Of a stretch of DNA of 64,000 nucleotides, positions 14,091 to 61,608 are shown in pieces. The DNA is taken from NCBI GenBank assembly GCA_965153455.1, contig OZ234493.1, positions 36,384,213-36,448,212 on the forward strand. The letters are read 5' to 3'. Made by a program: the position numbers and the translations under genes. The notes beneath the pieces are model-generated. The model had not been told where the DNA came from. It saw only the letters and a program-made list of their open reading frames with translations, and ran no database searches. Position 1 is the stretch's first letter. The number at the start of each line of letters is the position of its first letter. This stretch comes from Sphagnum compactum (taxonomy: Eukaryota).

Positions 14091-15830
14091 TTATTCCTCC
14101 ACATCATCTGAAGTCATCCAGAATTGTTGATTTAAGTCACCCCCATCTGTATCATCTGACATAGGGGAACTGCTACCTTCCTGCAGATTTTCAGCATCTG
14201 TTGGCATAAAATAAGTGACGATTTCTTCAATTTCACTGCTGTTCTCTTGGTGCAAAGTGCTGATGGGATCACTTGTTGTGAGTTCAATTCCAGCACTCTG
14301 TTGTGTGTCCACAATGCTTCCCACCCCATTTCCAATCCCAAGTGCAGCACGATCATGTCCAGCAACAAGAATATCCAAGAACTGCCGAGCAAGGTCAGTG
14401 TGCATCCGTCCTGCATGTCTTACCTCAACCATTTTATGCTCTGGTTTGTGCTGCTGGTTGAACCGGCCAACTACACAACCTAACTGATGACACTTCCCAC
14501 ACAAGTCATAGCCTGTCACATCAGGGCAATCGGTGCAACGGAACCTACTGCCAACAATTGGCATCATCCCACAACCATCACACCCAACTCCATCATGGAT
14601 AGGCCTATAGATTCTCGACTCCTTCCTGTTTTGACTATTGGCTTCTGGAACAGATTCCAGTGCTTCTATCCCCTTTCTTGGCTCCTCAGAGTCGCATCTG
14701 GTATGAAAGGCTCGTTCACTGTAGATGGAGGGAAAAACACTCTCAAGGTAATGATGAAGCTCCAAGCAAACTTGTGGGAAGAGACCAGGATGGTGTGACT
14801 TACACAACGGGCATAAGAGTGGAAACTCTTTCGACTTTTTGCTCCCGGGAACACAGGACTGACAAAAAATGTGGCCACAGTTTAATGTGATAGGCCTGTA
14901 TAAGATATTCTTGCAAACTGAGCACTGCAAATAGGTCATGGCAGTCACTATATCTGTGTTGGAGGCTCTAGCATCTGCCTGTTCTTCAACGTGTCTCTCA
15001 GCTACCCTTTCTTCAACAGCAAGCTCACTGTCCTTAGTTGGGGACTGATCCGATGCAGGACCCTTGGCTTTCCCAAGAGAGTCTTGATGACTTTTGAGAA
15101 AGCCCATTATTGTGGGTTCTGTCTGAATTCTGGAGACAGTCACAGGACACATGCTTGAGCAATTGGCCATGCTTTCACATCCATTTGAAGTAAAACCGCC
15201 ATGTTTGTTTTGTGGGCACTGCACATCTGCAGAAACTTTGACCTCTGAACCTAACAGACCATTCTGATTCTCTGAATGTGCACTTGGTACCTGGAAATGA
15301 TTGACACCAGTACCAAAATCTGGAGCAATGCTGGTGAAAAGCTCACCCTCTGCGGCTTCTGAGTTCAAAGTTCTGTTGTTTGCAGCTTCAGTGCTCAAAG
15401 TTGGTACATTTGGAACCATGGTGCTGTAAGCCTCCTCATCTTTTGAGGCTTCTTCTTTGGTGCAAACACCATCACCAAAGGTCTGCATGCTAGAATGTTC
15501 TCCATTGCAAACTTTCAAGAAGAAAGTGTCCTCTTCAAATTGAGGGGAGAATCTCTCTTTCTGCAGCTCCTCCTCCCAAACCTCTTTTGCTCGCACAAAG
15601 TACTCATCTTTGACAACTTTCCAAAGAAAGCGATGGAGTTGCTCACAAATGCGTGGAAAATACATGTACGGTCGTCTACAAAGTGGGCAACGGGATTTGG
15701 AGGTTCCATCCATAGCCAGGTATACACACCAGAAGCAAAAAAGGTGGCCACATGCATGCACTATTGGCTTATATGCAACCTCCAAGCAAATCAGGCAATG
15801 AAATGCCTCTTCACCAGACCCTAATTCCAT
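14091..15830 (-). CDS. PRT1: E3 ubiquitin ligase PROTEOLYSIS1-like (RING-RING-ZZ N-recognin), 579 aa, single coding exon
   Basis: First ATG of the ORF is at 15830 (MELGSGEEAFHC). RING1 is CLICL..ACGHLFCFWC..CPLC and RING2 is CSVC..CGHIFCQSC..CPLC. The ZZ domain HDGVGCDGCGMMPIVGSRFRCTDC..YDLCGKC..GRFNQQHKPEH completes the PRT1 architecture. Confidence 0.9.
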   Translation of the reverse strand: MELGSGEEAFHCLICLEVAYKPIVHACGHLFCFWCVYLAMDGTSKSRCPLCRRPYMYFPRICEQLHRFLWKVVKDEYFVRAKEVWEEELQKERFSPQFEEDTFFLKVCNGEHSSMQTFGDGVCTKEEASKDEEAYSTMVPNVPTLSTEAANNRTLNSEAAEGELFTSIAPDFGTGVNHFQVPSAHSENQNGLLGSEVKVSADVQCPQNKHGGFTSNGCESMANCSSMCPVTVSRIQTEPTIMGFLKSHQDSLGKAKGPASDQSPTKDSELAVEERVAERHVEEQADARASNTDIVTAMTYLQCSVCKNILYRPITLNCGHIFCQSCVPGSKKSKEFPLLCPLCKSHHPGLFPQVCLELHHYLESVFPSIYSERAFHTRCDSEEPRKGIEALESVPEANSQNRKESRIYRPIHDGVGCDGCGMMPIVGSRFRCTDCPDVTGYDLCGKCHQLGCVVGRFNQQHKPEHKMVEVRHAGRMHTDLARQFLDILVAGHDRAALGIGNGVGSIVDTQQSAGIELTTSDPISTLHQENSSEIEEIVTYFMPTDAENLQEGSSSPMSDDTDGGDLNQQFWMTSDDVEE

Positions 15831-16082
15831 CTTTGAAACTCCCTTCACTACGAGTCCCCCTTTTTCCTCTACTCTAAGTATCAATTTGTCTCCTCTTTGT
15901 CAAAACTCAATGTTTTGTCTCCAAGCTTGCAAGAAGGGAAAGTACTTAAAACTTCACTTGATGTTGCCTTTCCTTACCACCATGTAAATTCTAGTCTCTT
16001 CAACTTGTCCGATGCATAACCCGATATTAGTGTGCAGTTGTTGTTGGTTGACCTCATCTGCTTAAACTGACTGAGCAGCCAC

Positions 16083-20300: not shown

Positions 20301-21744
20301 CTTAAACTTGGGTTTGTGACCAACATTTTGGTAAATGAGAAAATAGAAATGAAAATAAACTAAAAATTTGAGGAGATACAAGGGGCTAGAGATGACACAT
20401 TAACACAATGAAGGAACAAAATTGTGGGAATCAAAAGGGGTTTTCGAAGAATTCAAAGACATGTTTTAAATTTTGAATCTTTAACTTTCAAAATGCCATG
20501 AACATTTATAGGAGAAATTGGAAGGAAAAGTGTGTATGTGTTTAATAATCCTTTGGACCATTGGAAATACTAAAACAATTATAAGATGTTAAATTCACAT
20601 GTCTTCATTGAAATTCTTCATTATATGATTACTTGAAGCTTTAAAACACAAGTGTTCTAAAGAACCCCAAGCATTTAGAGCATAATGTGAAGAGACAAAT
20701 CATGTCAAAATTGGGTAAGTTAGACCTAGATGGAGGTTTCCAAAATGATAAGATAGTAAACCTACAATTGATAATATTTATGTGTATACACTATGTTTTG
20801 ATCACACTAGATATTTTACTCTAACGGAGGATGCATGAAAAAACATGATGTTGACATGTAGTTTTAATGAAGGATTACCTTGTAAAAGTATTGCCTCCTA
20901 TGAAAGTCATAATTAATTCTGATTCACATTGAGCCCAAATCACATCAAATCTTATTTTTGTTTTCCTTGCATAGGATAAAAGGTTGAATATTTCTCATTG
21001 GAAAAATGATATGCTTTTGATGTGTCTTAAAACTTTTGTTACTAGACCATAGTCATAAGGAGTTGAGTATATTGAAGGCTTTTGAAATCTTTCTTGCATG
21101 CTTATATATGCTACCCACATCAATAGTAGAAAAACTAATTTCAGCTAAAGTTTTGTAATTAAAAAAATTGCTTATATCCAACAAATGATTATGCATTGGT
21201 TGGCTTAACAAAAAAATAAAATTCGTAACATTTATTCATCTTTGGAGTTTCAAAAAAATTATTTCAAGGGCTTCATAATTTCTGAGTTATGAGCACTTCA
21301 AACTCCACTTTGTTTGCAAATGATGATGCTCTAAGAAAAATTTCATTATCTTTCTCTTCATTTTTAGAAATTAGTTAATTATTTCATTTGTGACTTTTTC
21401 TTCTTGATTCTTTTGTTTAGTTTTGTCTCCTTTATGTTTTGTTGAGGTAGTAAACATCATGGTTTAATCTTCTTATTTTCATTACTAATCTTGTGATAGA
21501 AACTCAATATTGTATACAATAAATGAATTTAACTTCCATGCATTAGTTGCTAGGAATTTGAGAAGCTAATGGGCATGTTATGGTAATGTAATATATATTA
21601 CTAGAGGGTACCTGTGACCTTCAGACACTGTGAAGTCCCCCAGTTTCATTAAATAATATTTATTTCAAAGAATCATTTTGTTTTAAACAATTGCACGTCG
21701 TGAACGTAGCTTCTCGCAGAGCCATTTAGGAGATGCATGCAGCC

Positions 21745-24700
21745 TCAAAGGAGGGCTTCTTCGTATACAACATTGCGCATAAGGCCACTCCGGCCATGCA
21801 CAGTGTTTGGCAGCTGAACTTTGATCTTCGCTGGTGCCTTGGCGCGTGAAAAGGCAACGTAAAGTTGGCCATGCGAAAAAACGTCATCTACGAGATGAAG
21901 GCCAACATGAGAGAGGGTCTGCCCTTGAGACTTGTTAATAGTCATGGCATAAGCCAGCCGCAAAGGAAATTGCTTCCTTGCAAATGTAAATGGCAAACCG
22001 TTGTTATCGAAAATGAACTTAATGCGCGGGATAAAGGCCACATTACCGGCCCCTTTTATTGTGATGATCTCAACCTCAACGACTTGCATCGTGAAGCGTC
22101 GAACAATCAGGCGCGTCCCATTACACAGCCCAGCCAATGGGTAAGGATTGCGCAGCAGAATCACTGGTGCGCCAATCCTCAGCAGTAGCTTGTGTGAAGG
22201 CATGCCACTAACTTCCAAAGTGTTGAGAAACTCGGAAAGGTATGTGTTCGCCACTTCCGTATCCTCTGCAGAATCCGCACTGAGGAATTTGACTTGTGCG
22301 CCTAGAAGGTAGCTTAAAACCATCGCGTTTATTAACAAAACCTCCTTGTTGCGAGGAGCCAAAATCGCATGCTCATGCAAATATTCGTTTGTGGCTTGGC
22401 CCTCATGTAGTCAAGGGTAGATGGCCACAACCATGGCTTGTGTGTTTGCAGGAGGGAGTACCATCATGTCTGGACACTTGATGTAGTCCTCATCGATGGT
22501 TTCTAGTTCGTTGTTGCCAAGACAAAGAAGCCAGTCTGCAAAAGTGCGATTCCCAAGATCAGGGTGAACAACAACAGCATCACTGGCCCGCATATTTTCC
22601 GAAAGACGGAATACGTCAACAGATTCCCATAGGTAGGAGTTTTTGATTGATGCAGAGACAATGTCTGCATGGGATCCCCGGGGGATGACTAGAAGGACTT
22701 GGCGAAAGTCCCTTGACATGACGAAAACAATGCCACCAAAGGGTTCATTCCTGTCTGTAAGGTCACGTAGAGTTCGATCCACCGCTTCAAAAGCGAGCTT
22801 ATTAGTCATAGGAGCTTCATCCCAAAGGATGAGCTTTGTTTGACGGATTAGCACCGCTAAATCATCCTACTTACGGATATAGCAGAAGGACGTACGGTCG
22901 AGCGCGATCGGGATCTTCAGGTATGAATGGGCCGTTCACCCTCCTGAAAGCAAAAGCGCAGCAATGCTTGAAGAGGCGACAACAAGTGCAATATCGCCAC
23001 GCGAACGCACAACGTTGAAAATCAAGTTTTCGATGTAGGTCTTACTCGTTCCACCAGGGCCATCGATAAAGATGACTTTAGCGTGATGGGCAGCATATGC
23101 ATCGATTACGCCATTGTAGGCTACACGTTGCCCATCATTGAGGCTTTCAATGGCCATAACCACCTCGGCTTGCAAGACCTCGACATTGTAGTTGCGCTCC
23201 ACCTCAAGCAGGCGATTGGTCTCTAACTGATCAAAGGCAACAGATGGGGTAGGAAGGCCAAAATCCTCAAGAGTTTTACTAAATTTGGCAAGCGCATCCC
23301 GTAAGGAATGCAGTGCCCAACTCTCAATTTGCTCAATGGACGGTTCCACTATACTGCGACGTTGCAATGCTACCTTGTAATCATCGCAAATGTGCTCCTT
23401 GTACTTGTCCCAGAGCATGCACAGCGCATTTGGAACGCCAAAGGCCAAGATGGTCACAAACAAAGACCGCAACTGCGCACCTGTTCGCATGCCAACTGCT
23501 TCTTCCAAGCAGGCATTCCACTCGTCATCCGAGTCATACAAACCAAGTGCAATGCATGCTGATTTGAATGTGTCATGGACAACACCATTATTTGTGTGAA
23601 AAGCTTCAAAAGAAACAGCACCTTTGACCTTCGTTACAATGTACGCAAGAAATAACGTTCGCCAGCGGAAGGACTGACGAAATAAAGGTGCCCGACACAA
23701 CACCCTCTCTGCCGGATGGTCCATTTTTTCGTCCCATTGGTCCATGTAAACACGGAGGGAAAATCCATGTACGTGACTTCTCTAGCCAAGGGGTAATCAA
23801 TATTGGCTTGGAAGTATTCGGTGAGCGTTGTTTTTTGGTTTTGCTCGCTATTAACAGTTTCAAAAATACTGGCATTATCATTGTACACGACCGTATGCAT
23901 TCCAGGCTCGTGCACAACAAGGCGTGTGACAGACGGTGTCCCGTTAAGCATTCTAAAAGAGAAAAGACGCCATGATGCCTCGGAAGTGGAAACATAGTGT
24001 CCTTCAAGGTATGCTTTAATTTCAACACGGTTTTCCCACTCACCATTGGCAACGATCGCCTGCGCGTTGTTATCCTGGCCAGGCATATTCGCTCGCCTTT
24101 CGACAACGGCAGTAGCACGGTCAGGTCCCTTGTACACATACTTGTACAGGTACTTGACGGCAGATATGGACGAACATATCTCCACGTTGATGTGCGCGTG
24201 GTACTTGGTTGCTAGGTGAAGATTATACGGGACAATCCACTGGTTATCCACCACACATTGCGTCTTTGGATCTACAAAAATGCGGGTTTGACGGCGCCGA
24301 TACTCGGGGTACCCATCAACATCATAGCGCGTTTCTTCGCTAAAGGAACGCGGGTACCTTTTCATACACTTTCCTTGCTCCATGCATTGTGCGTTGAAAA
24401 AATCTGGACCACATGGCCCATGCACCATGCACGAAGTGACCGTCTCATACGCCTCAGGATGGCATATCGGCTCCGAAATCTCGGCCGATACCATCGAATC
24501 GTAGTCCTCGGCGGTGCGCAATTTCGACACTTCATCTAAAATGAGCAAAATGTGCACATGGGGCAAGCCTCTTTTTTGAAACTCGATGACCCAAATTTTA
24601 GCAATCACATTGCCAAGAACACCGTCTTTAATGTCCTTCAAAAGGGCGTTAAGTTTCAAATTAAAAACACGAGTTATTAAGTCAGGGCGATCCTTGGCAG

Positions 24701-26184
24701 TTAAGTGGATCTGTAATCTCTTTCCATTTAGGATTACAAGTAAATGTGACAAAAAGGTCCAGCTTACCAAATTTGCGGACCCTGGCCATGGCATCCTGGT
24801 ACAGTTGGCCCATGGCGCGCTCACCGCCCTGGAATGACGACGGAAGAATCATCTTCTGCCCGATGTCGTTCCCAAAAACGTCGCCAGCATTCAATGCATC
24901 TTGAAGACCATTGTACAGGTCGCAACGTAGTTGTCGCTGGTTCTCGCGAATAAACTTCAAGTGGTTTTGTTCAGTACATGCATATGCGTCAACAATGAAT
25001 TGCTGTAAAAGCTTTCCGACTCACAGAATCCATTCTTCGTTGATGCGATGTTATAGTATGTATGAGTAAAACTGAAGCATGGTGACGCGTGCGGAAGCGC
25101 GTTTACCACCTACTGCATTCTCGTCATCTTGGATGAGCCCAGAGCCATCCCATTGAAATCCATTCAATGGGATGTCGTCATGCCATCCGTTGCGTCCATC
25201 TGGGAAGAGAAGGACGTAGTGCAGTGGCGCGTATGCACTCTGTAGGGGAGAGACGCGCTGAAAATAACCATTAGTCGAACGAATGACAATGTCACGTGCG
25301 TTTGCTTCATCCACATCGCCCCCAACCATCAATGCGCCAACTTCGTCAGCAGTTGGCGCATCGTAGCGCTGCAAATCAGTGCGGCGATCATTTAGCAAAC
25401 GAAGACTTAGCTTAACAGCCTCGCCTTGGAATCGTTCCATGGCCGTTTGGTAGATGTTGGCGTAGGGGTTACATTCATGCAGCATCGTTTGCAACGACTG
25501 CATAATGTCCCTGTTCAGGCCGCCAAAATTGCCCATCCAACCATCAAGCTCGGCATGTGGATCGCTAATGTATAGTTGGGTGAATTTTGGCACCTCGCCA
25601 GGCTGAGGAAGTAGACTCCCCATCCTATGGTAAAGCTCACCGCAAAGACGGTAAGTATAGTTGCCAAGTTGGGCAACACTGGTATCCAGGTTGGCCCCCA
25701 TAGACGTGAAGGCCAACGCATTGTTGTAAGAGCGAATCCGCTGACGAAAGTCTTTTGCCTCTGCTTCGTTACTTGTAAGGAGCCACCTGAGCAGTTCTGG
25801 TGGGGGTGCCAACGGGGGCAGCGTCACCTTACCTTGTGCGCAACACGGTGTAAACTACGGATTGGCACGCGAACTTGATGCAACACGCTCCTCCAAAAAG
25901 TGTAGGGCGTCGCACTTGCCACACATTGTGGTCATTTCACCTAAAGTGTGGCGAAGACCATGATGGTTGCCGTCAAATTCACGGCGCGCCAAAGGGATCA
26001 CTTGGTTCCCACCTTGGTTTGCGTGATCTAGCTCACGTTGGGCACTACGTGCGCTTTGACCTTCCCGTCGGCTAGCATCCGTTGCACGTTGCTCCTTAGA
26101 TCGAGCAGTGTGCCTCTCTAGGGCAAGACAGTTTCGGCGGACGCGCGAGCCTTCCAAAGGGGACTCTTCTTCCTCTTCATTCAT
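21745..26184 (-). pseudogene. Helitron RepHel (Zn-finger-like + HUH Rep/Y2 + Pif1-family SF1 helicase), disrupted by stops and frameshifts
   Basis: Seven collinear ORF pieces: CGKC..CC N-terminal motif; FVTFTCNP (Rep motif 1); WVIEFQKRGLPHVHILL (HUH); KYLYKYVYKG (Y2); FIDGPGGTSKT (Walker A, G>S); ILWDEAPM; QFPLRLAYAMTINKSQGQTL; FSHGQLYVAFSR. Confidence 0.95.
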
Positions 26185-26914
26185 TGGTTTAATTATAAAG
26201 CATCAGAAGTTACTTCTGAAAATCTGTAACACCTTCTGCATCCAAAAGCACCATTTCCAATAGGATGATAGTACCTAAGCAAAAAAGATGATCTGCTGTA
26301 GACTCTTCAGTAGGATCAGTGCTTGACAGCCTGCATTGAGCAATCAAAAAAATTTTGGGTCCTTTGCACACATTGCTGATATGTCTCTGGCTTCTTAATT
26401 TCCACAGTTGCTCATGTGCCTGCTATATATGTGGCAAATGATGATGATGATGATCAAGCTGATTTTTCAGATCAAAAAAAAAAGGGAGGGCTTGTGACAA
26501 ATAGACAATCAAGAGAGTCTTGACCATGAAGAAGACTTGCTGATGAGGGCATTAAAATATGTCCATTCCCATGTCTTGTGCTTTTCCATGGATCTTTTCC
26601 AAGGGTGCTTAGTTTTCATCATGAGAACATGAAGCTCAAGCAAGTCTAGAGTTCAGAAGCTGAACTTCCCTTGAGCACTGTTACATTGCCAGCTATGGAG
26701 AATGTTTTCATTGGTTCCTGCTCAAAAAAAGAAGGAGTTACTAAGAGAAAAGTCTAGGCTTTGAGTCTAAGCTTTCAGCTTCATGGGACCAAGACTTATG
26801 GTGAGAGAACTTCAGCTTTGAGTCTAAGTTTTCAGCTTCATGGTCAGAGGAAGAAAAAGCTTCAAAAGCTTCAAAAGCAGCTCAGAGTGATGGGTATCAA
26901 TCTTCTCTAGCTCC

Positions 26915-27442
26915 ATGAGCTTGATGAAGCAGCTCATGATCAGCATTGGAAGAAGAAGAACCACCACCCAGTTTGTTGTTACTGTTGCTTTTGCTCAGCT
27001 TCCTGGACAGTTGATGGCTCAGAGATCATGGAGCTTCATCAAGTTGCTGCTACTGCTGCTAATCCTATTGCTGCTACTGTTTTTTGTAGGCCGTCTAGCT
27101 GGAAGAAGAAACCACCTTCAAGTTGTCATGGTTGTTACTACAGCAGCTGCATCTGTGGTCGACGACAATGACGTAGCAGCATTATGGGCATTCAAGCAAG
27201 GAACTACATGGCAAGGAGCAGATCCATATCCAGATTGGGTGCTAGCAGCTCCTGACATGCAAGGACCATGTCACTCGATAGGAGTTACCTGCAACAGCTT
27301 GGGGCAAGTCTCAGGAGTGAGTCTTCACCAACTGGGTCTTTCTGGCACTCTGACTCCCAAGCTTTTCTCCATCACAACTCTGTAGCATCTGGATCTGAGC
27401 TCCAACTCCTTCACAGGAACAATCCCAACCGAAATTGGAAAT
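26915..27442 (+). pseudogene. Captured 5' fragment of an LRR receptor-like kinase/protein (signal peptide, LRRNT cap, first LRRs) inside the Helitron
   Basis: Hydrophobic leader FIKLLLLLLILLLLLFFVG; cap DVAALWAFK..DP..W..PCHSIGVTC; then [44 protein letters not shown] (plant-specific LRR consensus). One TAG at 27383-27385. Confidence 0.88.
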
Positions 27443-27563
27443 TCCAAACCGAAGACAGAGGGTGAGTATGTGCCTACACAGAGCCCAGAAGATAACAGCC
27501 ACTACAAAAATGCGCAGGACAACCGCCGCTTCATGATCTATGTGCATGCCAAGATGATGATTG
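27443..27563 (+). pseudogene. Captured phospholipase D (C2-PLD alpha/delta-like) exon fragment ending in the second HKD motif, with splice donor
   Basis: Translates [40 protein letters not shown], then G|GTGAGA at 27563/27564. This matches the recalled plant PLD consensus GEYEP.E.P..DY..AQ..[16 protein letters not shown]. Confidence 0.88.
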
Positions 27564-29903
27564 GTGAGAGACTTGAATGTCTATTTTCCAGCTTTTCAAC
27601 TGCGTTTCCACTCTAGAAGGGCATGAAGATGTCTTAAAAAATTCATTTTCTGCAGTCTAGAATCGACTCTTTGGTTGATAGACTACCATATACTCACGGA
27701 AAGCTCAAGTGGGTTAATCTTTCATAGTTTGTTACTCAAAGAGAAATTTCAAATTTGGAAGCTAGTCCTGGAAGGGAGTTGATCATCTGGAAGACTAACC
27801 CACTCTTCTTTGAACTCCATTGCCACCACTTCCCTCTAGGCGCTTCCACGTACTGCCTTAAAGTTGTTCATCTCTTACTTTTGAGCTCCTTTGGTGTGAC
27901 GATCCCCCATAAGATGTCTCCTCTCTTCGGTAGCTTCGGACTGGTACCTTTCTTCTCTGTGCCTCCATTTGGTTTCTGTTGTTGCTAGCCCTCCATCGCT
28001 CGCTCTGCTAAATTCATGCAGACCACACAAAAATAATTTCGCAGTGCTAAAACAAACTGGGCTAACAGAATCACATGAACATGTGGATAAACTGCTGACG
28101 CCGCCATGAGTCGTCATCCTCCTCCCGTTCCATCATCTTCTTCTTCCGGGATGAGAAACTTGGATGGATAGATGACGGGACGAATGGATGGAAAGGACGA
28201 CCACTCAAGGATATTATATAAGGATATTATATAAGTAGATACACATTGCAATTGAAGTTCATTGAACAAGCATGTAAATTGTATCGATCGTTCAAACCAC
28301 TAGTTAATCAGTCCTTTGTTTTTTGGTATGGAGTGTCTTATTTCTTTTCTCTAATTGTTGCCTTAAAGATCTTTATAACCTTATCTTTAAGTCATTTCTT
28401 GATTCTATTCAAGTTGGTCTAAATTGCAAGTACATGAAACACAAGAATGGGAAATTTCTCATACTTATAAGACTTTAACAAGGAAGAATGAAAGTTACAA
28501 TTGATTATAAGCATGGCAATTGAGACCAAATAATGAATTCTGCCTCCTTTTTGGAATAGATAATTGTTGAAGAAGGAGAATGGTGTTACACAAAGTCTGA
28601 TGTCGGAATATGTGCCAATTATTCATCAGATATTTGGAATGACTAGACTAGGATGAGAGATCATGCAATGCAATGTAGGAAATGTGGGGGTGCATATGAT
28701 TATGGAGATAACAAGCTTTTATCATAGCAAGGTATAAGAAAGTATAATACACAAATTTCATTGCAAATTGGCTTAAATATGTGGAACTTCATGCAGATTG
28801 TGGTTTTCACATGGCAATAGGAGGAAAGCCTGATAAAACAAACACAGATTGAGCGTTGTAATGCAGAAATTGAGATCTTTGATTAACACGTATCAAAATT
28901 CAATTGCTGCAACAAGATTTGGTCAATTTCAACAGCTGCACAGCAACGACAGCAGCAGGGCTCTTGTATATAGTTCCGTTCTTTCAACCAAAGAAAGAGG
29001 AACCTGATTGCCAAAATGCTTCTCACAGACACAGAGACCTATGAAGAAGTCAGCCTGCATGAAAAAGCTGCTCAGCTTTTGACAAGATAGCAGCTCAGCT
29101 TTTGACAAGATTGCAGCTCATCTAATGGAAGCTGGCTGGCAGTCTGTGGTCCAGATGTCCAGACTCCAGACATTCGTCAGTTTCCCCTTCCCCTATTGCA
29201 CACTTATCCTCACTGACTGAGCTGCAAAGGATGGTTCAATTTCCTAGAGATCAGGCATTTGTGAATAGAACCTGTGACAATTTGTGCAATTTGAATCTCT
29301 TGCTCCAGATCAATTTGTGACTAGGTATAGGTACCCACTATCCACCCTCTTAGGAACGGCGTACTAGGTTAGGCAAAAGTACGCGATGAACACAAATAGT
29401 TGAGAATAGAAATTCTGCCCCGCCAAATGAGCTGATGCAGCAATGCACCCAATAGATCCAGTTTTTTTTATTTTGAGGAGGGTGGGGGCTGTTGGTTTCT
29501 TTGAATATTTTTGGTTCTCAATGTGTTCCCATCAAGTCCCCACTGTGTTCACATCAAGTTCCCAATGTGTTCTCAGCAGGTTCACCAAGTTCCTAATGAG
29601 TTCCCTAATATGTTCCCAAAAGCACCTCACTTTATCCCATAGGCTTTGCCCAGCAATGTCCTCTTGGAACCGATATACCTGGGCCAATATTGAGATTTCG
29701 CTACTCCCCTTGCTTCTAGTAAAAATTTGAAAGATTCAGGACGTTTCAGTGGAGCAAATCAAAGAGAGTCCTTGCAAGAAAAAATCTGAACTTCAAATTG
29801 CTGCTCCAGAACAGCATTTGTATGTGTCTATTGTCTCCTCCTCCCACGCATTTTCTGATTAATGAGTAAAGGGGCGTTTGTTGTTTCCCCTCCACACTTG
29901 TGG

Positions 29904-29930
29904 CTCTCTCTCTCTCTCTCTCTCTCTCTC
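29904..29930. repeat. (CT)n microsatellite
   Basis: About 13 CT units, read directly. Confidence 0.95.
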
Positions 29931-31063
29931 CTGAACAGGATTTGTAAATAGAACCTGTGACGAGTTGTTGCACTTGAATCTGCTGCTCCTATACCCAAAA
30001 CCTGGAGTATGTCATCGGGAGGACAACAGTGAGTACACAGACAAGGTTCCAGTCTCCTCAGAAATGAGATGCTTGCTGAGCTTTCTTGCATTTTGATTAG
30101 GAATTCATGGTACTTTTATTTTCTCTCTTGATGAGATGAGGTGTTTAGGGTTTAGGGGAGAATTTGGTGTGGAGGTGCATTGGATCATGATATTGCTGCC
30201 AATTGGATTTGCTGCACAAACTTTTTGAACTCAGATGCTGCTGATTTCCAACAAAGGTTTGTCTTGTGACCCAATTGCTAATGTTCATGAAAGTGGACAT
30301 AACTGCACTCATTCTAAATTCTCTTAGCTTTGGTTTTGTCTGGCAAACCCGTGTTTTCAAATACATAATCTGACTGAAAGAATGGCTACCTTTCAAAAGT
30401 TGTTGTTATGGAGTACTCTCCACAATTTCTGTTATCTCTTTTTCTTGGATGACAGTTGATATTAACTTACTGCATATCATAGTTGGGTTTTTTGTATCTA
30501 GAATATGAAAGCATTCTGTTGTGTAAATTTGTTCAAGTGTCAGATTTCAAAGATTGGTTCAGGGTTTAGGACACAGCACCAGAAGCCCTGAAAGATTTGC
30601 TGTTTCTTTACCATTAGCCAATGTTTGAAGTTCGCTTCATTTTGATAATTTTATTGATTCTTGGGGTAGTTCCGAATGGTCATATACTTAATCTTATTGT
30701 TCATTTTCCAGGACATTATCAAGTATGTCAATTCCAGTGTGGATTCAAATACCATAGCCAAGGCTCGCTAGGTACTAATTAATTACTTTTTGAAATTTCC
30801 AAGTTTTGAAAATATGTGCCTGCAATGGCAAAAATCTGAATGAAGCTCTCAAGTACAATATGTAGCTTCATTATTTAATATAATATCAAATTATAAATTA
30901 TTTCTATTGCTGAACATAACTGATTTTTAAAAATAAAATTAGGCACCTAAGCCCTTGCTGCCGAACCAGCCCTAGGTGGTAGGGTACTACAGGTAGACAG
31001 AATTCAAGTCCTTCTGAAGAAATATAGAAACCTAGATTAACACCAAAAACCAATCTGACTCGA

Positions 31064-31428
31064 TAAAGTTATCAGTAAAGTCACCCTGTCTTCACCCTGT
31101 CTTTGGGCCTGCTTTCACCCCCTTTCCTCTCTTTCAGTGGTATCTGCAAAGTAAGGAAAATTTATTAAATCTCAGTATGAAATGCTGAAACTCAGCATTT
31201 AATGCACAAGGTTCGAAAGTAATTATAGTAGTTTTACAGGTAGGAGCAGTGAAAACATATGTAACAGCAGTGGAGCGCTCAGGAAAAAGAAAGACAAGAT
31301 GAAACTCAGTTTACCACCAAAATTGGTGGAAAAACTAGTTTGGGTCCCAGTTATTTTGCATTGTAGAAATTTGATTCCCAGTTATGCGTTTGATGCCCTA
31401 TACTGCTGAAACTGGCCGTTCTCGCCCT
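31064..31428 (+). repeat. Dispersed ~350-bp repeat; second copy inverted at ~57234-57578
   Basis: Shares blocks such as GAAATGCTGAAACTCAGCATTTAATGCACAA and GATGAAACTCAGTTTACCACCAAAATT with the reverse complement of 57234-57578. Confidence 0.85.
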
Positions 31429-31863
31429 GCAATCGTGAGACTTTAGGGATCACTCTAGTACTTGAAAACTGCAGACATGTTTCCTTCTGCTCTCCTTTGA
31501 CCAACTGGGCACTTGTTTTTATAGGATCTTTGTTGCTTTCCAACCTAATGTTTCAGGCTTGCACAACCCATGTGCATCAGTTGCAACAAGCAGTGACTGT
31601 GTACCTTGTGGCAGGTTCAAAACTTCAAACCAGGGATGGTTTAAAAGGGAAATGTTCCATTTGAAGTTCAGAGAAAATTAACTCACACTTTGAGGGATTT
31701 CTTACTGGGGTTTTAAATTGTGATTCATCAAGTGTGAATGCACCATAAGGTTGTCAAGTTATCAGTTTCTTTCACAAACAAAATAGAAGAAACTGGATGG
31801 TCACATATTTTTCACACAAAAAAAGTTCTTAAGTTCTCAAAATTTTCCCAGAAACCCCAAATA

Positions 31864-32180
31864 AACAAGGGGTGTGTCACACCATGGCCTTGCCATTTAC
31901 ATTAAAAAGTATCTTAAGGCAAAAGAAGAATTATGGAAACTCAAATATTTCACCATAGCAAAAATATAATCTTCAAAAAGTCCTCTAAATCCTTCAAGAT
32001 ATTACAACTCTGTAACTAATCTCAAGTTTCAACACAAGCCAAAATATCACCTTTCAAAAATCCTCATATAAAAATAGACCTGTTATTACCTAGGGGCTAA
32101 AATCCCTTGAGCTACTATACTCTATAATGAATCTAAACCCAATATCCTTGCCTTGGTAGGCAAGGCCAATAAACTACAAT
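31864..32180 (+). repeat. Dispersed ~320-bp MITE-like repeat; second direct copy at ~40078-40432
   Basis: Near-identical to 40078-40432 (CAAGGGGTGTGTCACACC..TGGCCTTGCCATTTACATTAAAAAGTATCTTAAGGCAAAAGAAGAAT...). Short inverted repeat TGGCCTTGCC (31885) / GGCAAGGCCA (32159). Confidence 0.88.
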
Positions 32181-33959
32181 TATTTCAAAGCAAGGAACAA
32201 TGCATGAATAGTGCACACTGACATCAAAAGCATGGGTCCTAACTCTATGCAAGAAATAATGCCATGTGAACACAACTCTTGACATGCACAGCTTGACAAC
32301 ACCAGTGCTTGAAAGCTGGTCCTGCTGGTCCTTAGACCAATAGTGCAATTTAAGGGCCACTTTACTTGACATTTCAAGGTCCAGAGTCAAATGAAATAGA
32401 GCAATCCTATCGGAAGGGAGTCATAAATTGGACCCATGACTTTTAGACAAGGGTCCAAGACCAAAAAGTGGCAAATCAAGGCTAAACATACACACCACCA
32501 TTTTTTTTGAAGGGAAAATGAATTGGTTTGAACAAACAAAAAAGAATTAAGAAGGAGATAGCTCATGATTTGAAGAACTAAGGTGCAAGCTAAGGTCAAA
32601 GGCAAGGTCCAACTCAAGGATTCAATTTGCTTCAAATGAGTCCAAATTGGTTCCTAGGAAATTGGACCCTGGATCCCTGTCTAAAGGGGTGCTTACACTG
32701 TATGTGCACCCTAACCTCCAAGTCCCATGTGTTGATTTCACATTTCCCCAATTGATTAGCTTAAATGAAACAAAAAAAAAAAGAAAAAAAAGTGAAAACC
32801 TAAATGCCTAATTTCATTGAAATTCCAAATCCATTGCCAATCATGAGCATAGACCATGGTAGAGTTTTCCATCATTTAATAAATATTAGGCAGCAAAAGT
32901 CCCTAACTTGGTAGGCAGGCACCATAGTAACTTTATAAACTAAAATTGCAACCCATCAAATAGGTCTAGTGCAAACAACCAAACTCAGGACTCTTTTTTT
33001 TGTGGCTAAAAACTGCTAAATGGCTACCTCAAATTTGACCCTGCTTTCTCCAAGCCTTTTAATTATTATTATTTTTTTAATAAGTCAAAATTTGTTTTTC
33101 TGTCAAAACTCAGCATTCAAACAACAAGGTAGCCAATCCACCCCTCATATTGGCATCACCATTCCAGCTCTCCTCACCCAGGAGCTTTTCGCCTCCTCTA
33201 CTCTTGCTCATATCAATTTGTCACCAATGTGATAGCTCCATTTCACTTTGCAAGTATTTTGCGTAGGAAATTTAGGAACCGATGTAGTTAGTTCATTATG
33301 GATGTTGATATGTATTTGTAGATTTGTAAAAGTGCAATCAGATTTTTTGAGTTGTTTTTGCTTATGCTGTGTGATTTGGAAATTGCAGCTATGCTTGAAT
33401 TTTAAGACTCAAGTTGATGGTGGAGGTTGTTAGTTTGGTGAATGGATCTTTAGTATTTATTGAGAAATTTGGGGGTTACATTGATTTCAAGATCTTGTGT
33501 TTAAGGTGGTCATTGATTGTTGGGGAGTTTGGGACTCGAAATTTGGAAGTGACAATGCACAAGTCGACAATTGATATCAAAATTAAGAGTTTAAAAAGTT
33601 TGTCTTTTATTCATGCAAAAGTGTGCAGACTTCATTCTTTTTATTGTTATGTTTCATTATGTATGTGGATTGTGTGTGTGAATTGTTGCAAGTTGTCACT
33701 AGGCTTTTTAATTTTTGGCTAGGGAAGAAGTTACACATTACACAATGCATAATCATAGTATGATGTTTCTTTTATCATTTTCAAAAACCTTCAAGTTCAA
33801 GCTAATATTCCTTATTGTTAATGTTGGCGTTGATGTTGTCATTCATGTTGAAATTGTTGTTATTGATTTTGAATGGGATGCTTCCCAAACTATTATTGTT
33901 GATCTAGTAAAAGATTTTGTAAATCTAAAACATATTCATGAAGGGTCCAAACACTTGTG

Positions 33960-36900
33960 GTAGCTACTAGAAATGATGTGCACTAAGTATGTTGTATGAT
34001 GTGTTTTAAAGTAAAAGGCAAAGAAAAGTTTTTGGTTCCTAAGATTTATAATCTATTGAGTCATACAAATAAGCACAAAGACAAGGTTGCTAGTGTCAAC
34101 ATTGAGGCAAGTTCTTTTTACTTTGAAACCCTAAATGTCAACATGCATGTAATGAACAAATATACACAAACTTTAAGTGTCCTTTTGATTTTAAATTTGG
34201 TTGTTCTTGAGTTTCCACAAGAAAAATAAAATAAAATTTGTTAAGTTTGTTATGTCTATCATTTGTTGTCTAGTGGCTAAGCGATCATTAATTTTGAGAG
34301 TTTGAAAGAACTTTTTTGTGTGCTTAAGGTCAAGGACATTCCTAAAAAAAACTTGAGTGACTTTACAAGTTGAGGTATAACAAAATCCATTAATGAATTA
34401 TTATTGGAATTTGCACAAAATCTTGTTGTTGCAAATTTCTTATCTATCATTGTGGATGAGGTCATTGCAATTGACAACATTTTTTGGATATCCCTTCATT
34501 TGTATGTTCTTCAAAGTTGGAAACAAATTCCACTTTAGTTTTGTGAGAGAAAAGTTAGTGTGCAAGGGATTGTTTAGAATGTTTTCCAGTTGATGGTCAC
34601 ATTTGCGGGTTTGAATATTGAATAATTGAAAGCAATGTTCATATCAATGGGTTGTGATGGCAACAACATGTTCCAAGGTGCAAGAGCTAGTGTGATTGCA
34701 TCGATGAAAAAGAATGTGGTTCCATTCTTGATGGGAGTGCATTACTTTGCCCATTGAACGACCTTTGCAGTTTTATAAAAACTAATTTTGGTGGTTTGCT
34801 TGGAAGCCCTCCTTGAAGGTTTATATGGTGTTTTTTTTAATTTGCCTAAAACTATTTTAGAATTTCAAAAGCTATGTGACGTGTTCACATAAAAATAAAA
34901 AAAATGTTTAGGAATGTGAAGACAAGATGGGTACTTATATTGTCTCCTATAAAGCACATCACGGAACAATATCTACTTATATAATATCCTTGGGTGGTCG
35001 TCCTTTCCATCCATCCGTCCCTTCATCCGTCTCGACATCCATCCATCCAAGTTCCTCATCCCGGAAGAAGAAGATGATGGAAGAGGAGGAGGAGGAAGAA
35101 TGGCGGCAGCAACAGTTTATCCAAATGTTTATGCGATCCAATCCTGTAGTCTTGCAATTTGCCAAAAGCTACAAACTAATTTTTAAAAACTAAAAATTGT
35201 TGAAAAAAAAATGAGAAACGAGAAAAGAAATCTTTTGAAGACAACACAAGAAATTTCAAATTAAAAAAGAAGAAAACAAGTTATTAATAAATAAATAAAA
35301 TGAAACAAAGTTGTAACAAAAAAGAAAAAAACAGAACAAATATATATTTTTCAAAGGGAAAAAACTAGAAAAAAAATAAAAACAAAAAACACTTTAACAA
35401 TTAGAAATTTTTAAAAAACATTTTAAAATAGAAACAAAATATGAAACATATGCAACTATTATTACTTTATGTTTGTATATATTTATGCAACATATTCAAA
35501 CATTATCGTGCATCTAATTGTTTGTAACAATAAAACATATAAAATAAATATATTTAAACATGAAACAAAAAGGGAAATATAGTAAAATAATCTTAAAAGA
35601 AAATCAAAAAATAGATGACAAAAAATAAAAAACAAAACAGTGAGCAAAAGAAAGAGAAAAAAAACCATACTTGAAAAAAAAATGAGGTTTGTCTTCTTTT
35701 TCCAAACTTCAAACCTGCATCTAATCAAACAAAAATACAAAAGTTTTTAAAAATTATTTTCATTATAAAACATATTAGAAAAACTAGAATTCTTTTGAAA
35801 AAGAAAATAGAAAAAATAAATAAATAAATAAATAAATATAGAAAAAAATGAAGATAGACAAAATAAGAATAGAAAAAATAAAAACATGAAACAAACATAA
35901 ACAAAAAAAAAGTAAAAACGCAAAAACTATAAAAAAGGAACGGAAACAAATGAAACAAGGAAAGGGAAATACAATAAAATAATTTTAAAAGAAAGAAAAA
36001 ATTTAAATGAAGAAACCAAATAAAGAATAAAAAAAATAAAAAATAAAACTTATAATAATGAAGAAAAACCCTACTTGAAAAAGAATGAGGTGTGTCTTCT
36101 TTCTCCAAACTTCAAACTTGCATCCAAATAAACAAAAATATAAAAGTGAAAAAGAAACACTTTATTTTATTATACAAAATAATAATAAAAACAGAAAACA
36201 CATAAAAATAAAAAATATAAAAGATAAAAGTTTCTAGAAAAAATTAAAACATGAACCAAGTTTGAAGAAACCGGGGACTTCACAGTGCCCGAAGGTCACG
36301 CGTACCCACTAGGTAATGTTTTAGGTGTCTGTCTGTCTGATCGTCCTCCTTGGGGGTAAGGGGGTTAGGGTTAGCACGCCCTTCAAAATTTAGCACGCTC
36401 ACATGTTTAAAAAGAAGAAAGCTTGGAATCTGCCCAAATCCTCCACAAATCTTGGCAATTTCAAAACCTGTTTTTTTTCTCCTCAAAATGTGCCGATTTC
36501 AAAACTCTTTTTTTTCACCCTTTTGGAAATGTGGCGATTTAGTTTTGTTTTTGGAAATTTTCCAAAACACTCGCTTCACCATGTATGTTTTCATGGGGGA
36601 CTTTTCAACGGATTTTCGCCACAAAAAATAAATAAAATAAAAATAAAATTAGCTGCTTTGATTAAACTTGCCCAATTTCATGAAGTAGAGTTCCATCATT
36701 TCTATTATGATCCTTATAATAAAATTTTTGACCCAACTTTTGATGAGTTGAATGTTCTTAATATGCTCACCAACAAGAATATGTCAATGATTTTGTGTAT
36801 AAACTTTAATGGTGAAAATTTTGACTACCTTGTTATTGAAGTTTTTAATGTTAAATGCTTTGTGACAATGTTGTTTTAAGCAAGCAATGCATTAAGTTAT

Positions 36901-40077: not shown

Positions 40078-40432
40078 ACAAGGGGTGTGTCACACCGTGA
40101 GTGGCCTTGCCATTTACATTAAAAAGTATCTTAAGGCAAAAGAAGAATGATGGAAATTCAAATATTTCACCATGCAAAAAATATAATCTTCAAAAAAATC
40201 CTCTTAAAAGAAACCAAAATCCTTCAAGATGTCATAACTCTATAACTAATCTCAAGTTTCAACACAAGCCAAAAATATCATCTTTCAAAAATCCTCATAT
40301 AAAAATAGACCTATTATTATTATTATTATTATTACCTAGGGACCAAAATCCCTTAAGCTACTATACTCTACAATGAATCTAAACACAATATCCTTAAGGG
40401 CCTTGGTAGTACGCAAGGCCAATAAAATTGCA
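40078..40432 (+). repeat. Second copy of the 31864-32180 MITE-like repeat, with a (TTA)n expansion
   Basis: Direct alignment by eye with 31864-32180. Confidence 0.88.
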
Positions 40433-52100: not shown

Positions 52101-52987
52101 ACTCCAATGGAAAAGTTGACGAAACATGTATGCAGTCTCGGGAGATTTGGACAGGTGTTACTTATGCAGTTGCTGCTGCTATGATACATGAGGGCATGAA
52201 TGAACAAGCATTCACTGCAGCTGAGGGTGTGTTTCTTGCAGGCTGGTCTGACCTTGGGTAAGGGATCCATGAACTCCTTTTGTGCTTTTTACAATTTTAC
52301 TTGGAGTTTGCTTAACCCCTGTGGAGAACATCCTCTATATCTAAATCTTTGGATTTCTGTTGAATGCTTGGAAAATTGTTATGTAGTTTGCAGTAGTGTT
52401 CATTCTTATTTCATTACTATGCCGGTACCTGCTGGAACTTTTTGGCAGTTTAATCTGGCTTTGCTCTTCATCAGGTCCTTGCTCATTTGGGGGCCATTTC
52501 ATGACATGAAAAAATGACATTTATCTTAGTCTAAAAGGCAGGAAAATATATGGTGCTGGAACATATACTTCAGATTTGTGTGGAATCTTCTGGGAGAAAT
52601 ATCTCTGTCAGGAAGGGATCAGATTTATTGTGAAGCTTGAAGTACTTTCTGTATTGTAACAGATACTCTTTCCAGACACCAGAAGCATGGACAACAGATG
52701 GCCACTTCAGGTCTCTTGCATACATGCGACCACTTGCCATCTGGGGCATGCAATGGGCACTTAACCCCCATGCATCCTTGCTGGAAGCTCCTCGAGTCCC
52801 CTTGATGGAGCGAGGCTCCTCCCATGGCATTCACTGTGGCTTTTCTTCACTTGCAGATGCCCTCCGAAGCAATCCCATGCCACAGTTAAGAAACTCACAA
52901 TTAGAGAACTTCCTCAAACATGCACTTGTAGTAGGTGGAATTGCTGGTACAATGTACTTCATAGCTTCTGCATTAGCTCGGAAATGA
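43176..52987 (+). CDS. GBA2: Non-lysosomal glucosylceramidase (glycoside hydrolase family 116), 20 coding exons, 1093 aa
   Basis: Hand-spliced exons: 43176-43268, 44415-44525, 44694-44750, 44959-45032, 45234-45333, 45577-45662, 45816-45916, 46160-46263, 46401-46454, 46721-46776, 47338-47376, 47842-47986, 48349-48533, 48821-48888, 49326-49398, 50231-50292, 50419-51290, 51420-51788, 51950-52257, 52663-52987. Total 3282 nt, in frame. Motifs: [39 protein letters not shown] (nucleophile E), TYDVHFY, VPHDLG, WKDLN, DQTYD (acid/base D), [22 protein letters not shown]. Confidence 0.95.
47177..47256. mobile_element. 72-bp piggyBac-like miniature inverted-repeat element flanked by TTAA, in a GBA2 intron
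   Basis: TTAA|CCCCTAAACAT...ATGTTTAGGGG|TTAA. 47176-47191 is the exact reverse complement of 47242-47257. Confidence 0.55.
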
Positions 52988-60500: not shown

Positions 60501-61467
60501 CTTGAGCCCTATCCATGTTAGAGTGTGAGCCTTGTAGGTAGAGCGCGGTATCGTTCGCAAAGGTCTAGTCTATGATGCGTCCTCCTCTCGGGAGGGACAA
60601 ACCCTCCACCCCAAAGCGTTGGTCATCTAACATGTGCCCGAGCACATCCGTGGCCAGGATAAAGAGATAGGGGGCAAGCGGGCACCCCTGCCTAACTGAC
60701 CTGGCGAGGGGAAAGCTGCTCCCCACCACCCCGTTGAACTTGATCGCCGATGAGGCTAAGTGGTACAGGGAACGCACCCAGTGGATCCACTGGTTGCAAA
60801 ATCCAAGCTTAGCCAAGGCTTCGAACAGGAATCCCCACTCGATCCTGTCGAAGGCTTTCTCGAAATCCAGAAGTAACAAGATCAGGTCCTAGTCACTCTC
60901 CTCAGCCCAGTCCAGGGCCTCCTGCACCAGGAAGGTGTTGTTGAGGATACTCCTCCCCTCCACAAACCTGGTCTGGCTGGGCTTGACTATGCTTGGAAGG
61001 AAAACTTGGAGTCGCCTGGCCAACATTGTGGCCAGGATCTTATAAGGGCTGCCTAACAGGGTTATCGGGCGCCGGTTACCTAGTCTGGCGTGGTCTCTAG
61101 ACTTGGGGATTAAGGTTATGAGACCTTTGTTGATCAGCTCAGAGGTTGCCCCCGTGCTGAGCATAACTCTGAGCAGAGTTGGGGATATTTCCTTTGTGAA
61201 TTCCTGAAAGAACTCAGTGGGGATGTCGTCGCTCCCCGGAGCTTTGTCCTTTGGCATCGCCGTGATGGCGTCCTGGACCTCTTTGAGAGTGAGCTCTTTG
61301 ATCAGCTTGATGTTCATCTCAGTAGAGACCCTGGTCGGGGTGCTGGCCCAGCATACCTCCCGGGCTTCAGTGGTGCCGGGGGCGTGTGCTTCCGAGGCAT
61401 AGAGGTGCATATAGAAGGAGCGCACATAGTGGGCCAGGTCTGCCTGGCCCGTGATTTCCCCGTCGTC

Positions 61468-61608
61468 TGTTGTGAGTTCTTTAAGCGGCGTCCTTTTCCT
61501 GCCTATGCGGTGGAAATCAAAGAACTGCTTGGAGCAGGTGTTGTGAGTTCTTTAAGCGGCGTCCTTTTCTTGCCTATGCGGTGGAAATCAAAGAACTGCT
61601 TGGAGCAG
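61468..61608. repeat. 71-bp tandem duplication inside LINE ORF2, causing a frameshift
   Basis: TGTTGTGAGTTCTTTAAGCGGCGTCCTTTTC...GGAGCAG starts at 61468 and again at 61539. Confidence 0.92.

Follow-up and report, generated by a model that had tools for sequence, protein, structure and literature searches.

Fragments of LRR receptor-kinase and phospholipase D genes share one stop-interrupted frame inside a defective Helitron of Sphagnum compactum

Maize Helitrons that carry gene fragments have reportedly been treated in works by Morgante in 2005 and Barbaglia in 2012, and studies of Helraiser and of bat Helitrons are said to stress read-through at the 3' end as a capture route. In maize, the Helitrons that are transcriptionally active number about 2,791, with sequences from 376 genes (PMC13317346). 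For the insect Hel1 Helitrons, both end bypass and filler DNA have been described; internal fragments were argued to exclude end bypass, internal acquisitions to point to the repair of breaks inside the element, and 2-13 bp at the end junctions are common to the source loci (PMC6544945). Among the papers retrieved on Helitron gene capture in mosses, no title or abstract opening described a bryophyte case. Here, we describe such a capture in the window, the whole stretch of 64,000 nt of Sphagnum compactum DNA that was analysed. We regard the feature as most probably a dead transduplicate, that is, a Helitron carrying pieces of an LRR receptor-kinase (LRR-RLK) gene and of a phospholipase D (PLD) gene that were copied into an internal break by filler-DNA repair.

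The carrier, Helitron A, is a defective element of the autonomous type, 6,639 nt long (21601-28239, minus strand), delimited by its termini, an empty site and the filled junctions. Its 5' region (27617-28239) begins at 28239 with the terminus TCTACTTATATAATATCC, preceded by a host A at 28240, while the 3' end (21601-21640) consists of a short imperfect palindrome and CTAG (21604-21601), followed by a host T at 21600; with TC at 28239-28238 and CTAG at the opposite end, the element displays the 5' TC and 3' CTRR of Helitrons. A second element, Helitron B (34972-36313), has the same end sequences and the outer ~170 nt of the 5' region in common with it, and the 27-nt 3' end motif occurs twice in the window against none expected from 100 shuffles. 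The 3' palindrome folds at -3.7 kcal/mol in Helitron A, a value equalled or bettered by 155 of 200 shuffles, and at -8.4 kcal/mol in Helitron B (17 of 200). An empty site is found in a sister organism, where X9 record 9 (5,282 nt, depth 32.4) joins 28239 to 21597: by the alignment coordinates of this one contig from one run, 28810-28239 corresponds to record positions 731-1303 and 21597-20500 to 1306-2398, and the two letters between these segments are as expected for A|T-A-A, with the T assigned to 28239. Helitron A is an insertion relative to the sister organism, placed between A and T without target-site duplication. Both filled junctions are also covered, 21600/21601 being bridged by 37 nt in X3 record 1 and 28239/28240 by 65 nt in X3 record 3. 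An alternative in which 36314-36388 served as the family 5' end, with 26194-36388 inverted, was dropped given that the empty site puts the 5' end at 28239. The segment 36314-36388 matches positions 2076-2148 of the metagenome locus L014.

Inside these ends lies a RepHel gene remnant (21745-26193, minus strand; ATG near 26184), recognised by its Pfam domains and frame lesions. Four of six ORFs matched the domains of a RepHel protein, namely Helitron_like_N (E 7.9e-18), PIF1 (E 7.4e-34 and 3.6e-16) and Pif1_2B (E 8.2e-18), on the minus strand over 21745-24848. The gene is broken: stops interrupt its frame at 25855-25857 and 22411-22413, and 1 nt is deleted after 23635, the lesions comprising a frameshift, a TAG and a CGA>TGA change. 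Other copies differ from the window at 22413 (16/16 reads of Hi-C run X21) and have an extra A after 23635 (40/51 X21 reads). Homology to a related element in L014 and L017 ends at 26193, and the 117 nt that separate the start of RepHel from the LRR-RLK fragment (26194-26310) match none of 79 loci in our metagenome scan. The captured fragments are antisense to RepHel, between the gene and the 5' end region of the Helitron. The earlier note had the chimera assembled by a Helitron; termini and empty site now enclose the whole patch (26311-27616), so that its placement inside the element is directly seen, while the Helitron may or may not have made the join itself.

The first captured piece (26311-27442, plus strand; 1,132 nt) comprises 604 nt of upstream sequence and 528 nt from the beginning of the coding sequence (176 codons), with an ATG at 26915, a hydrophobic N-terminus, an LRRNT-like cap and the first LRR. 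Pfam recognises it weakly, with LRR_1 (E 9.4e-4, 19.3 bits) and LRRNT_2 (E 0.05, 14.3 bits) both below the curated cut-offs. Despite these scores, the previous identification of a plant LRR-RLK start is borne out by six full-length native loci (L001-L006), which match over 1013-1143 nt at 88.4-89.7% identity in BLAST with gaps counted, or 95.4-95.7% over aligned bases only. In all six the match to the window ends at 27442, and the native sequence continues (...EIGNLVALQYLDL...) into more LRR exons and then a kinase; in L001 the LRR exons number two and the kinase is nearest BRI1 (E 8.8e-94). The breakpoint is seen independently in organism A, where X3 record 2 (4,045 nt) follows the window over 26719-27442, differing from it 16 times (16/724, ~2.2%), and then runs for 3,321 nt unlike it. 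By homology, the donor is a BRI1/EMS1-class LRR receptor-kinase gene. LRR receptor-like kinases combine an LRR ectodomain, a transmembrane segment and a kinase, and the fragment ends after the first LRR.

The second piece (27450-27616, plus strand; 167 nt) takes in the last 114 nt of a PLD exon (27450-27563) and, from the intron behind it, the first 53 nt (27564-27616), keeping the native GT donor at 27564. The native PLD loci L007-L009 are 98.2% identical to it over 165 nt, and L010-L011 97.0% over 167 nt; homology starts at 27450 or 27452, depending on the type of native locus, and stops at 27616. In PDB 6kz8_A (phospholipase D alpha 1), chain residues 624-666 align with query residues 17-59 (E 5.1e-9). 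The piece had been described as the second-HKD exon of a C2-type PLD, and of this the PLD match stands; the motif is incomplete, with the exon piece ending ...YVHAKMMI and holding the H and K only of the second HxK(x)4D, whereas the D lies in the next native exon (VDDEY; L007, L008, L011). In the native loci a C2-region exon is followed by HKD1, the captured exon and then VDDEYIIIGSANINQRSMDG, and the C2 region and both HKD motifs are all present in L007, L008 and L011. The VDDEY exon was absent from the window, and nowhere in its 64,000 nt did we find the D of the motif, the first HKD or the C2 region. C2-type PLDs are marked by a C2 domain together with two HxK(x)4D motifs, each of them complete; the fragment is thus a piece of such a gene and not a member of the family. 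A native PLD gene at 46.8 kb was considered and rejected, since 46835-47071 is the intron of a glucosylceramidase-like gene and has no PLD motif. The same interval resembles L065-L069 near the PLD exon, at 71-75% identity. In keeping with the proposal that two unrelated host genes were the donors, one for an LRR receptor kinase and one for a C2-PLD, both fragments have an intact parent elsewhere: full-length native donors occur in related plant contigs of the metagenome collection, and the LRR-RLK donor is also present in organism A. Because upstream sequence and part of an intron are included, what was captured was DNA and not mRNA.

From the ATG at 26915 to 27563 the plus strand reads as one frame of 216 residues, running from the LRR receptor-kinase start through a TAG at 27383-27385 (X157) to 38 residues of the C2-type PLD, with GTGAGA (27564-27569) directly 3' of its end. 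A hydrophobic run after Met34 was judged by eye to be a putative signal peptide. The TAG is the single stop, and the native genes read CAG at this codon, with C at 27383 in 6/6 loci, so that the earlier description of one frame with a lone stop, one C>T away from CAG, holds on both counts; both fragments also lie on the same strand in one frame, and the join is without frameshift, as had been claimed. Such an arrangement would be expected in about one in six random joins. The suggested use of GGAAAT microhomology, on the other hand, fails at the junction itself. GGAAA(T/C) is present in both parents in the same phase, yet in the window GGAAAT is followed by bases unlike either parent, and PLD identity resumes from 27450 or 27452. 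Alignment to the native loci of both genes leaves a filler of 7 nt (27443-27449), or as many as 9 nt when PLD loci of the L007-L009 type are compared, a length too short to discriminate among other possible alignments of these 7-9 bases, such as a slipped AAACCG. The junction bases rule out clean microhomology at GGAAA.

Could the join be older than the capture, or not exist at all? A native rearranged pseudogene, later captured whole, would be consistent with the divergence of both fragments from their donors by ~2%, as for one event, and nothing more direct speaks for it. The metagenome scan, in which the junction peptide was included as a pattern, retrieved 79 loci, six matching residues 1 or 5 to 176 and 73 matching only residues 174 or 180 to 216; none of the 79 matched both parts, and the peptide pattern matched no other locus. 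Nor did any protein cover both halves. The chimera search gave 7 matches among 413 candidates (top query coverage 65%); in a further search all 7 candidates matched, P0009-P0011 being partial PLD calls without an LRR part; and in a larger one there were 116 matches among 2,563 candidates (top coverage 62%), 6 with C2/PLD and 110 with LRR Pfam sets and none with both. On these metagenome and protein searches, a chimera that arose first in the host is very doubtful. That the assembler made the LRR-RLK/PLD/Helitron join would fit the observation that no read or contig across 27442-27450 was seen among the rows from runs holding at most 0.54 of the words, the share of sampled words of 26150-28100 found in the best DNA run. 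An assembler would not, however, produce a 167-nt piece 2% diverged, 7 nt of filler and a 1,132-nt piece ~2% diverged with its own stop, in a block whose limits are canonical Helitron ends with an exact empty site, and we give this explanation almost no credence.

The preferred reading, a dead transduplicate, has also to be weighed against function. An exon working now or recently would code for a secreted LRR-PLD fusion under the captured LRR-RLK promoter and be spliced from 27563/27564 into downstream sequence. In its favour, the upstream region, the ATG and a hydrophobic N-terminus are there, the join keeps the frame, the GT donor is native, and a single stop shuts the frame. Against it stand this very TAG, a PLD piece of 38 residues that contains no complete domain and lacks the catalytic D, and the lack in the window of a downstream PLD acceptor or later exon; the in-frame join, moreover, carries little weight at about one in six. 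No open version occurs among the proteins of 41-2000 residues searched. Expression and splicing from 27563, as previously suggested, find no echo in the polyA RNA run X22, where depth on 26392-27373 is 0.2-0.6 and, among the rows listed, none of the joints or loose ends crosses 27442-27450 or departs from 27563 at this locus, though with ~12/100 of the run read, and a run that may be without the insertion, this is no evidence against expression. Over 27527-27561, the X22 reads carry a loose end at either side and continue into a VDDEY exon, and therefore derive from native PLD mRNA. A working exon is thus extremely improbable. A related idea treats the captured block as a portable 5' gene module (LRR-RLK upstream region, ATG, secretion signal, LRR and PLD splice donor) pointing out of the 5' end of the Helitron. 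If true, sister copies with CAG upstream of host exons would drive spliced fusion transcripts, and a new promoter and secreted LRR head for host exons would amount to transposon-borne exon shuffling in a bryophyte; we hold this to be a long shot.

How widely the patch is shared bears on when it was acquired. Word depth in run X3 is 1,040 on 27865-28355 and 143-1,047 on RepHel, compared with 22-31 on the single-copy flanks, so that RepHel stands at 5-35 times the flank and the LRR coding part at ~1 times; most family members therefore are without the patch. Hi-C run X21 was left out of these estimates, with a flank depth of 0-0.3 and most reads 90-99% alike; the left flank has 1 GATC site. X3 has both Helitron A ends at this site, yet its depth on 26883-27373 is 37, close to single copy and explained by the native gene, whose contig alone contributes 34.6. 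The LRR-PLD patch is thus not demonstrably present in the X3 individual, where collapsed contig bubbles could hide it. Such figures would suit a patch private to the accession of the window, acquired in place when the Helitron had already landed and a later double-strand break in this one copy was mended with LRR-RLK and PLD filler, never mobile and unique. The younger open copies foreseen in the earlier note did not turn up, neither the metagenome scan nor the protein searches having yielded a second junction, and this too agrees with acquisition in place, as does the excess of RepHel over LRR. Nonetheless, contigs cannot prove absence, and in organism B, which is without the insertion, the contig over 26489-27039 has a depth of 108.8 against 30-44 for single copy, hinting at extra LRR-RLK starts elsewhere. 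Furthermore, the ~2.2% separating the fragment from the organism A gene resembles the 2.6-3.6% between the flanks of organisms A and B, which argues that the copy is not very recent. On balance, acquisition in place seems unlikely, if worth retaining.

Overall, we suggest that the transduplicate arose through template-switching (filler-DNA) repair of a break within the Helitron, for which host genes served as templates, and that 3' end bypass would not have been the capture route, because the short pieces lie internally, follow one another and are linked by filler. From the CAG>TAG change, together with the CGA>TGA, TAG and frameshift in RepHel, we infer that this copy is decaying neutrally and would yield no LRR-PLD protein. 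The chimera is apparently an ordinary, dead by-product of transposon gene capture; capture of this sort is well known, and no new mechanism or protein is revealed. The case is nevertheless well delimited, with both donors, both breakpoints, the exact element ends and the empty site defined, and its carrier is an autonomous-type Helitron in a moss. It is relevant to the way in which Helitrons acquire DNA, since a patch that is internal and contains filler argues against end bypass, and it carries a warning for annotation: the "LRR" ORF is the cargo of a transposon rather than a gene.

Among described systems, the gene-fragment Helitrons of maize are similar in holding unrelated host gene pieces with introns, in series, between TC and CTRR ends (PMC13317346, PMC4528327), and in that the fragments can be read as a single chimeric frame that retains native splice sites. 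Here, by contrast, the carrier has its own, though broken, RepHel gene, the fragments are antisense, upstream of RepHel and adjoining the 5' end, only two are recognisable, no chimeric transcript was present among the X22 rows, and the host is a bryophyte, not a grass. Pack-MULEs and CACTA elements likewise bear host gene chimeras, some of them expressed (PMC13317346, PMC1947982); the present element differs in having Helitron ends, an A|T target and RepHel, without terminal inverted repeats or target duplication. The insect Hel1 Helitrons, with their stepwise internal acquisition, resemble it in that the pieces are internal, short and in series (PMC6544945), whereas the LRR|PLD join has 7 unmatched bases and is without clean microhomology. 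Helraiser and the bat Helitrons capture pieces of host genes, too, and mobilise them (PMC4778049); in the moss element, however, the patch lies away from the 3' end, and the RepHel stop is separated from CTAG by only 144 nt.

On the + strand, a single frame runs from an ATG at 26915 to 27563, interrupted by one stop, a TAG at 27383, and joins the start of an LRR receptor to a piece of phospholipase D (PLD), which confirms the chimeric frame claimed in the earlier note. Residues 1-176 form the LRR receptor start, with a long N-terminus, a hydrophobic run past the second Met, a cap with LRRNT-spaced cysteines, and a single LRR. Three residues (SKP) follow that are encoded by filler and the first PLD-matching bases, and the last 37 match plant PLD just ahead of the second HKD motif and extending into it (PDB 6kz8_A, E 5.1e-9); GTGAGA begins at 27564, directly after the frame ends. 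Since the Pfam matches on the LRR part (LRR_1 and LRRNT_2) both fall below cut-offs, the LRR identification is carried by DNA comparisons, not by Pfam alone. In functional terms, neither fragment belongs to the PLD or the LRR-RLK family.

We scanned a metagenome collection with the read-through peptide, the junction peptide being one of six patterns; 170 pattern matches yielded 80 encoding a relative, at 79 loci. Residues 1/5-176 alone are matched by six of these and residues 174/180-216 alone by 73; none of the 79 matches both halves, leaving the proposal of open younger copies unsupported. The LRR-RLK loci (L001-L006) align to 26311-27442 at 88.4-89.7% (95.4-95.7% on aligned bases only), every alignment ending at 27442. 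In L001, the frame goes on as a normal receptor kinase, whose first exon encodes 476 residues and whose LRR exon encodes 716, with a kinase nearest to BRI1 (E 8.8e-94). All six read CAG where the window has TAG, as the earlier note had supposed. The nearest PLD loci (L007-L011) align to 27450/27452-27616 at 97.0-98.2%, and three of them (L007, L008, and L011) have the full PLD gene, in which a C2-region exon, HKD1, and an exon with ...YVHAKMMI as its end are followed by a ~140-nt intron that leads into VDDEYIIIGSANINQRSMDG. The window holds the final 114 nt of the ...YVHAKMMI exon and 53 nt from the start of the intron after it, no further PLD sequence being found in the window; the LRR-RLK piece includes 604 nt of upstream sequence. 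Because of this intron and upstream sequence, both pieces must have been copied from genomic DNA rather than mRNA. The donor loci place the breakpoints at 27442 (LRR end) and 27450/27452 (PLD start). The central proposal, that two host genes are joined in frame inside a Helitron, proves right. Breakpoint 27442 is marked independently by the native receptor-kinase gene of organism A (X3 record 2, a contig of 4,045 nt): over 26719-27442 it shows 16 differences (2.2%), and its other 3,321 nt, past that point, do not resemble the window. A further truncated version of this LRR-RLK start is a metagenome contig protein (P0003) that breaks off at another point, its homology stopping at ...GADPYPE (~27227 in the window) before unrelated AT-rich sequence. 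Organism B, the sister organism, has a contig over 26489-27039 at ~3x single-copy depth; this and P0003 hint that the 5' end of the LRR-RLK gene was copied more than once.

Around the junction, GGAAAT leads into CTAGTT in the LRR parent, and in the PLD parents nine bases separate GGAAAC from AAGACAG; the window has GGAAAT followed by TCCAAAC and CGAAGACAG. Seven bases (27443-27449), or nine when compared with the L007-L009 type, are unmatched by either parent. GGAAA is common to both parents in the same phase, which explains why HMMER drew IGN into the PLD alignment. A simple switch at this microhomology would keep the PLD's own nine bases, which are absent from the window; the GGAAAT join first envisaged is therefore not what the 7-9 unmatched bases record. 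For two randomly joined fragments, sharing strand and frame would be about a 1 in 6 outcome.

The carrier, Helitron A, lies on the minus strand, where ORFs at 21745-24848 encode Helitron_like_N and PIF1 helicase domains. At its 3' end, a short palindrome precedes CTAG (21604-21601), and the adjoining base at 21600 is T; in L014 and L017, a related, internally deleted element has its end at this point too, as CTAA. The second end was set by comparing public runs with 20500-35200. In organism B, a contig at single-copy depth (X9 record 9, 5,282 nt, depth 32.4) passes from 28810 down to 28239, through two letters, and then from 21597 down to 20500; on the minus strand, the 5' end has A at 28240 and TC at 28239-28238, followed by TACTTATATAATATCC. 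Therefore 21601-28239 (6,639 nt) is a single insertion that separates an A from a T, has Helitron ends, and left no target duplication. The same organism B contig runs gap-free from 28898 to 28810, lacking 87 nt of the right flank (28811-28897). Organism A contigs span the filled site on the left (X3 record 1, 20500-21637, 4 differences) and on the right (X3 record 3, 28175-29573, 2 differences). The 27-nt 3' end motif occurs twice in the window versus 0 expected (100 shuffles). In X3, word depth is 22-31 in the flanks, compared with 143-1,047 over the Rep/helicase gene (RepHel) and 1,040 at the 5' end, so the family numbers tens of copies. The 3' hairpin of this copy folds no better than shuffles; that excepted, Helitron A passes the Helitron tests run. 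A second, short, non-autonomous member of the family, Helitron B (34972-36313, 1,342 nt, + strand), starts with the outer ~170 nt of the Helitron A 5' end, inverted at 34972-35137 (81.5% over 173 nt against 28239-28070). Its interior is AT-rich and of low complexity, and it carries the 3' end motif; its CTAG (36310-36313) is followed by G, not T. In the ~360-nt derivative on other plant contigs, L014 (2223-2583) and L017 (597-957), ~50 codons from the start of RepHel run directly into its final few codons and the 3' end (CTAA); on its upstream side, L014 has a stretch (2076-2148) that matches 36314-36388, just past the Helitron B 3' end.

From its 5' end, Helitron A comprises, along the minus strand, the 5' end region (28239-27617), the PLD piece (antisense to the element), the filler, the LRR-RLK piece (also antisense), 117 nt of unassigned origin (26310-26194), RepHel with its ATG near 26184, and a 144-nt tail before CTAG. 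Read-through past the 3' terminator deposits new DNA at the 3' end, and since the patch is not located there, this route is disfavoured. In the filler-DNA model, a break is repaired by copying ectopic templates. Short genomic pieces, serial, internal, and joined by a few extra bases, would be accounted for by such repair of a break within the element, which we consider the likeliest capture route.

Could the junction be private or artefactual? The junction did not turn up in independent reads, the best DNA runs containing 0.46-0.54 of sampled words from 26150-28100. X3 depth over 26883-27373 (37) is accounted for by the native-gene contig alone (34.6). Contigs collapse near-identical paralogues, so this depth cannot prove that the patch is absent, but it gives room for the less likely reading that the patch belongs only to the window's accession and was gained after Helitron A inserted. 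An assembly artefact joining LRR, PLD, and Helitron is very unlikely, given short pieces diverged from their sources and exact element ends. The PLD piece differs by 1.8-3.0% from the nearest native loci; set beside the 2.2% of the LRR-RLK piece and the 2.6-3.6% between organism A and B flanks (X9 record 9), this dates capture to about the A/B split or later. Organism B lacks the Helitron A insertion.

This copy is decaying. Besides CAG>TAG at 27383 in the chimera, RepHel (21745-26193, minus strand) has a TGA at 22411-22413, where 16/16 reads of a raw Hi-C DNA run (X21) give the base making CGA, a TAG at 25855-25857, and lacks an A after 23635 that other copies retain in 40/51 DNA and 14/16 RNA reads; other-copy reads are intact at two of the three sites. 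In polyA RNA (X22, ~12 in 100 of the run read, from material that may be without this insertion), the Helitron family is represented, with a depth of 2-16 over RepHel on the strand where sense transcripts should map, from reads of copies 90-99% alike. Depth over the LRR part (26392-27373) is 0.2-0.6. About 20 reads over 27527-27561 are loose at either end and extend into a VDDEY exon, and hence represent native PLD mRNA. Among the joints and loose ends listed for this fraction of X22, none crosses the chimeric junction, so the suggested splicing is unsupported; given the possible absence of the insertion, this is a lack of support for expression of the chimera, not evidence against it. The patch is an ordinary, apparently dead transduplicate.

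Neighbouring content, named by eye from ORFs only, includes a putative lipase-like alpha/beta-hydrolase exon (3469-5229, minus), a putative RING/ZZ-finger protein exon (14091-15899, minus), a putative multi-exon non-lysosomal glucosylceramidase-like gene (44000-52300, +), and, in a GC-rich block, putative LINE-type reverse-transcriptase/endonuclease remnants (58200-63800, minus). A ~310-nt repeat, probably a MITE or SINE-like element, occurs at 31865-32173 and 40078-40426 (83% between the two copies) and in L001, L003, and L021; its X3 word depth of ~138,000, against 22-31 for single-copy sequence, implies thousands of copies.

Maize provides the textbook examples of Helitrons whose serial host-gene fragments form chimeric reading frames or spliced products, and such elements are also known from bats, insects, and fungi (PMC13317346, PMC6544945, PMC4683698, PMC4528327, PMC4778049, PMC4289320). 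Among the papers listed by searches on Helitron capture in mosses, none was evidently of this kind. Both end bypass and filler DNA have been modelled, an internal position being argued against end bypass in PMC6544945; the serial, short, internal pieces of Helitron A, with extra bases at their join, agree with the filler-DNA model described there. Compared with known gene-capturing Helitrons, Helitron A is less usual in its apparent bryophyte host, suggested by runs labelled 'moss metagenome' that contain 0.31-0.34 of words, in its RepHel-bearing carrier, and in cargo lying antisense upstream of RepHel.
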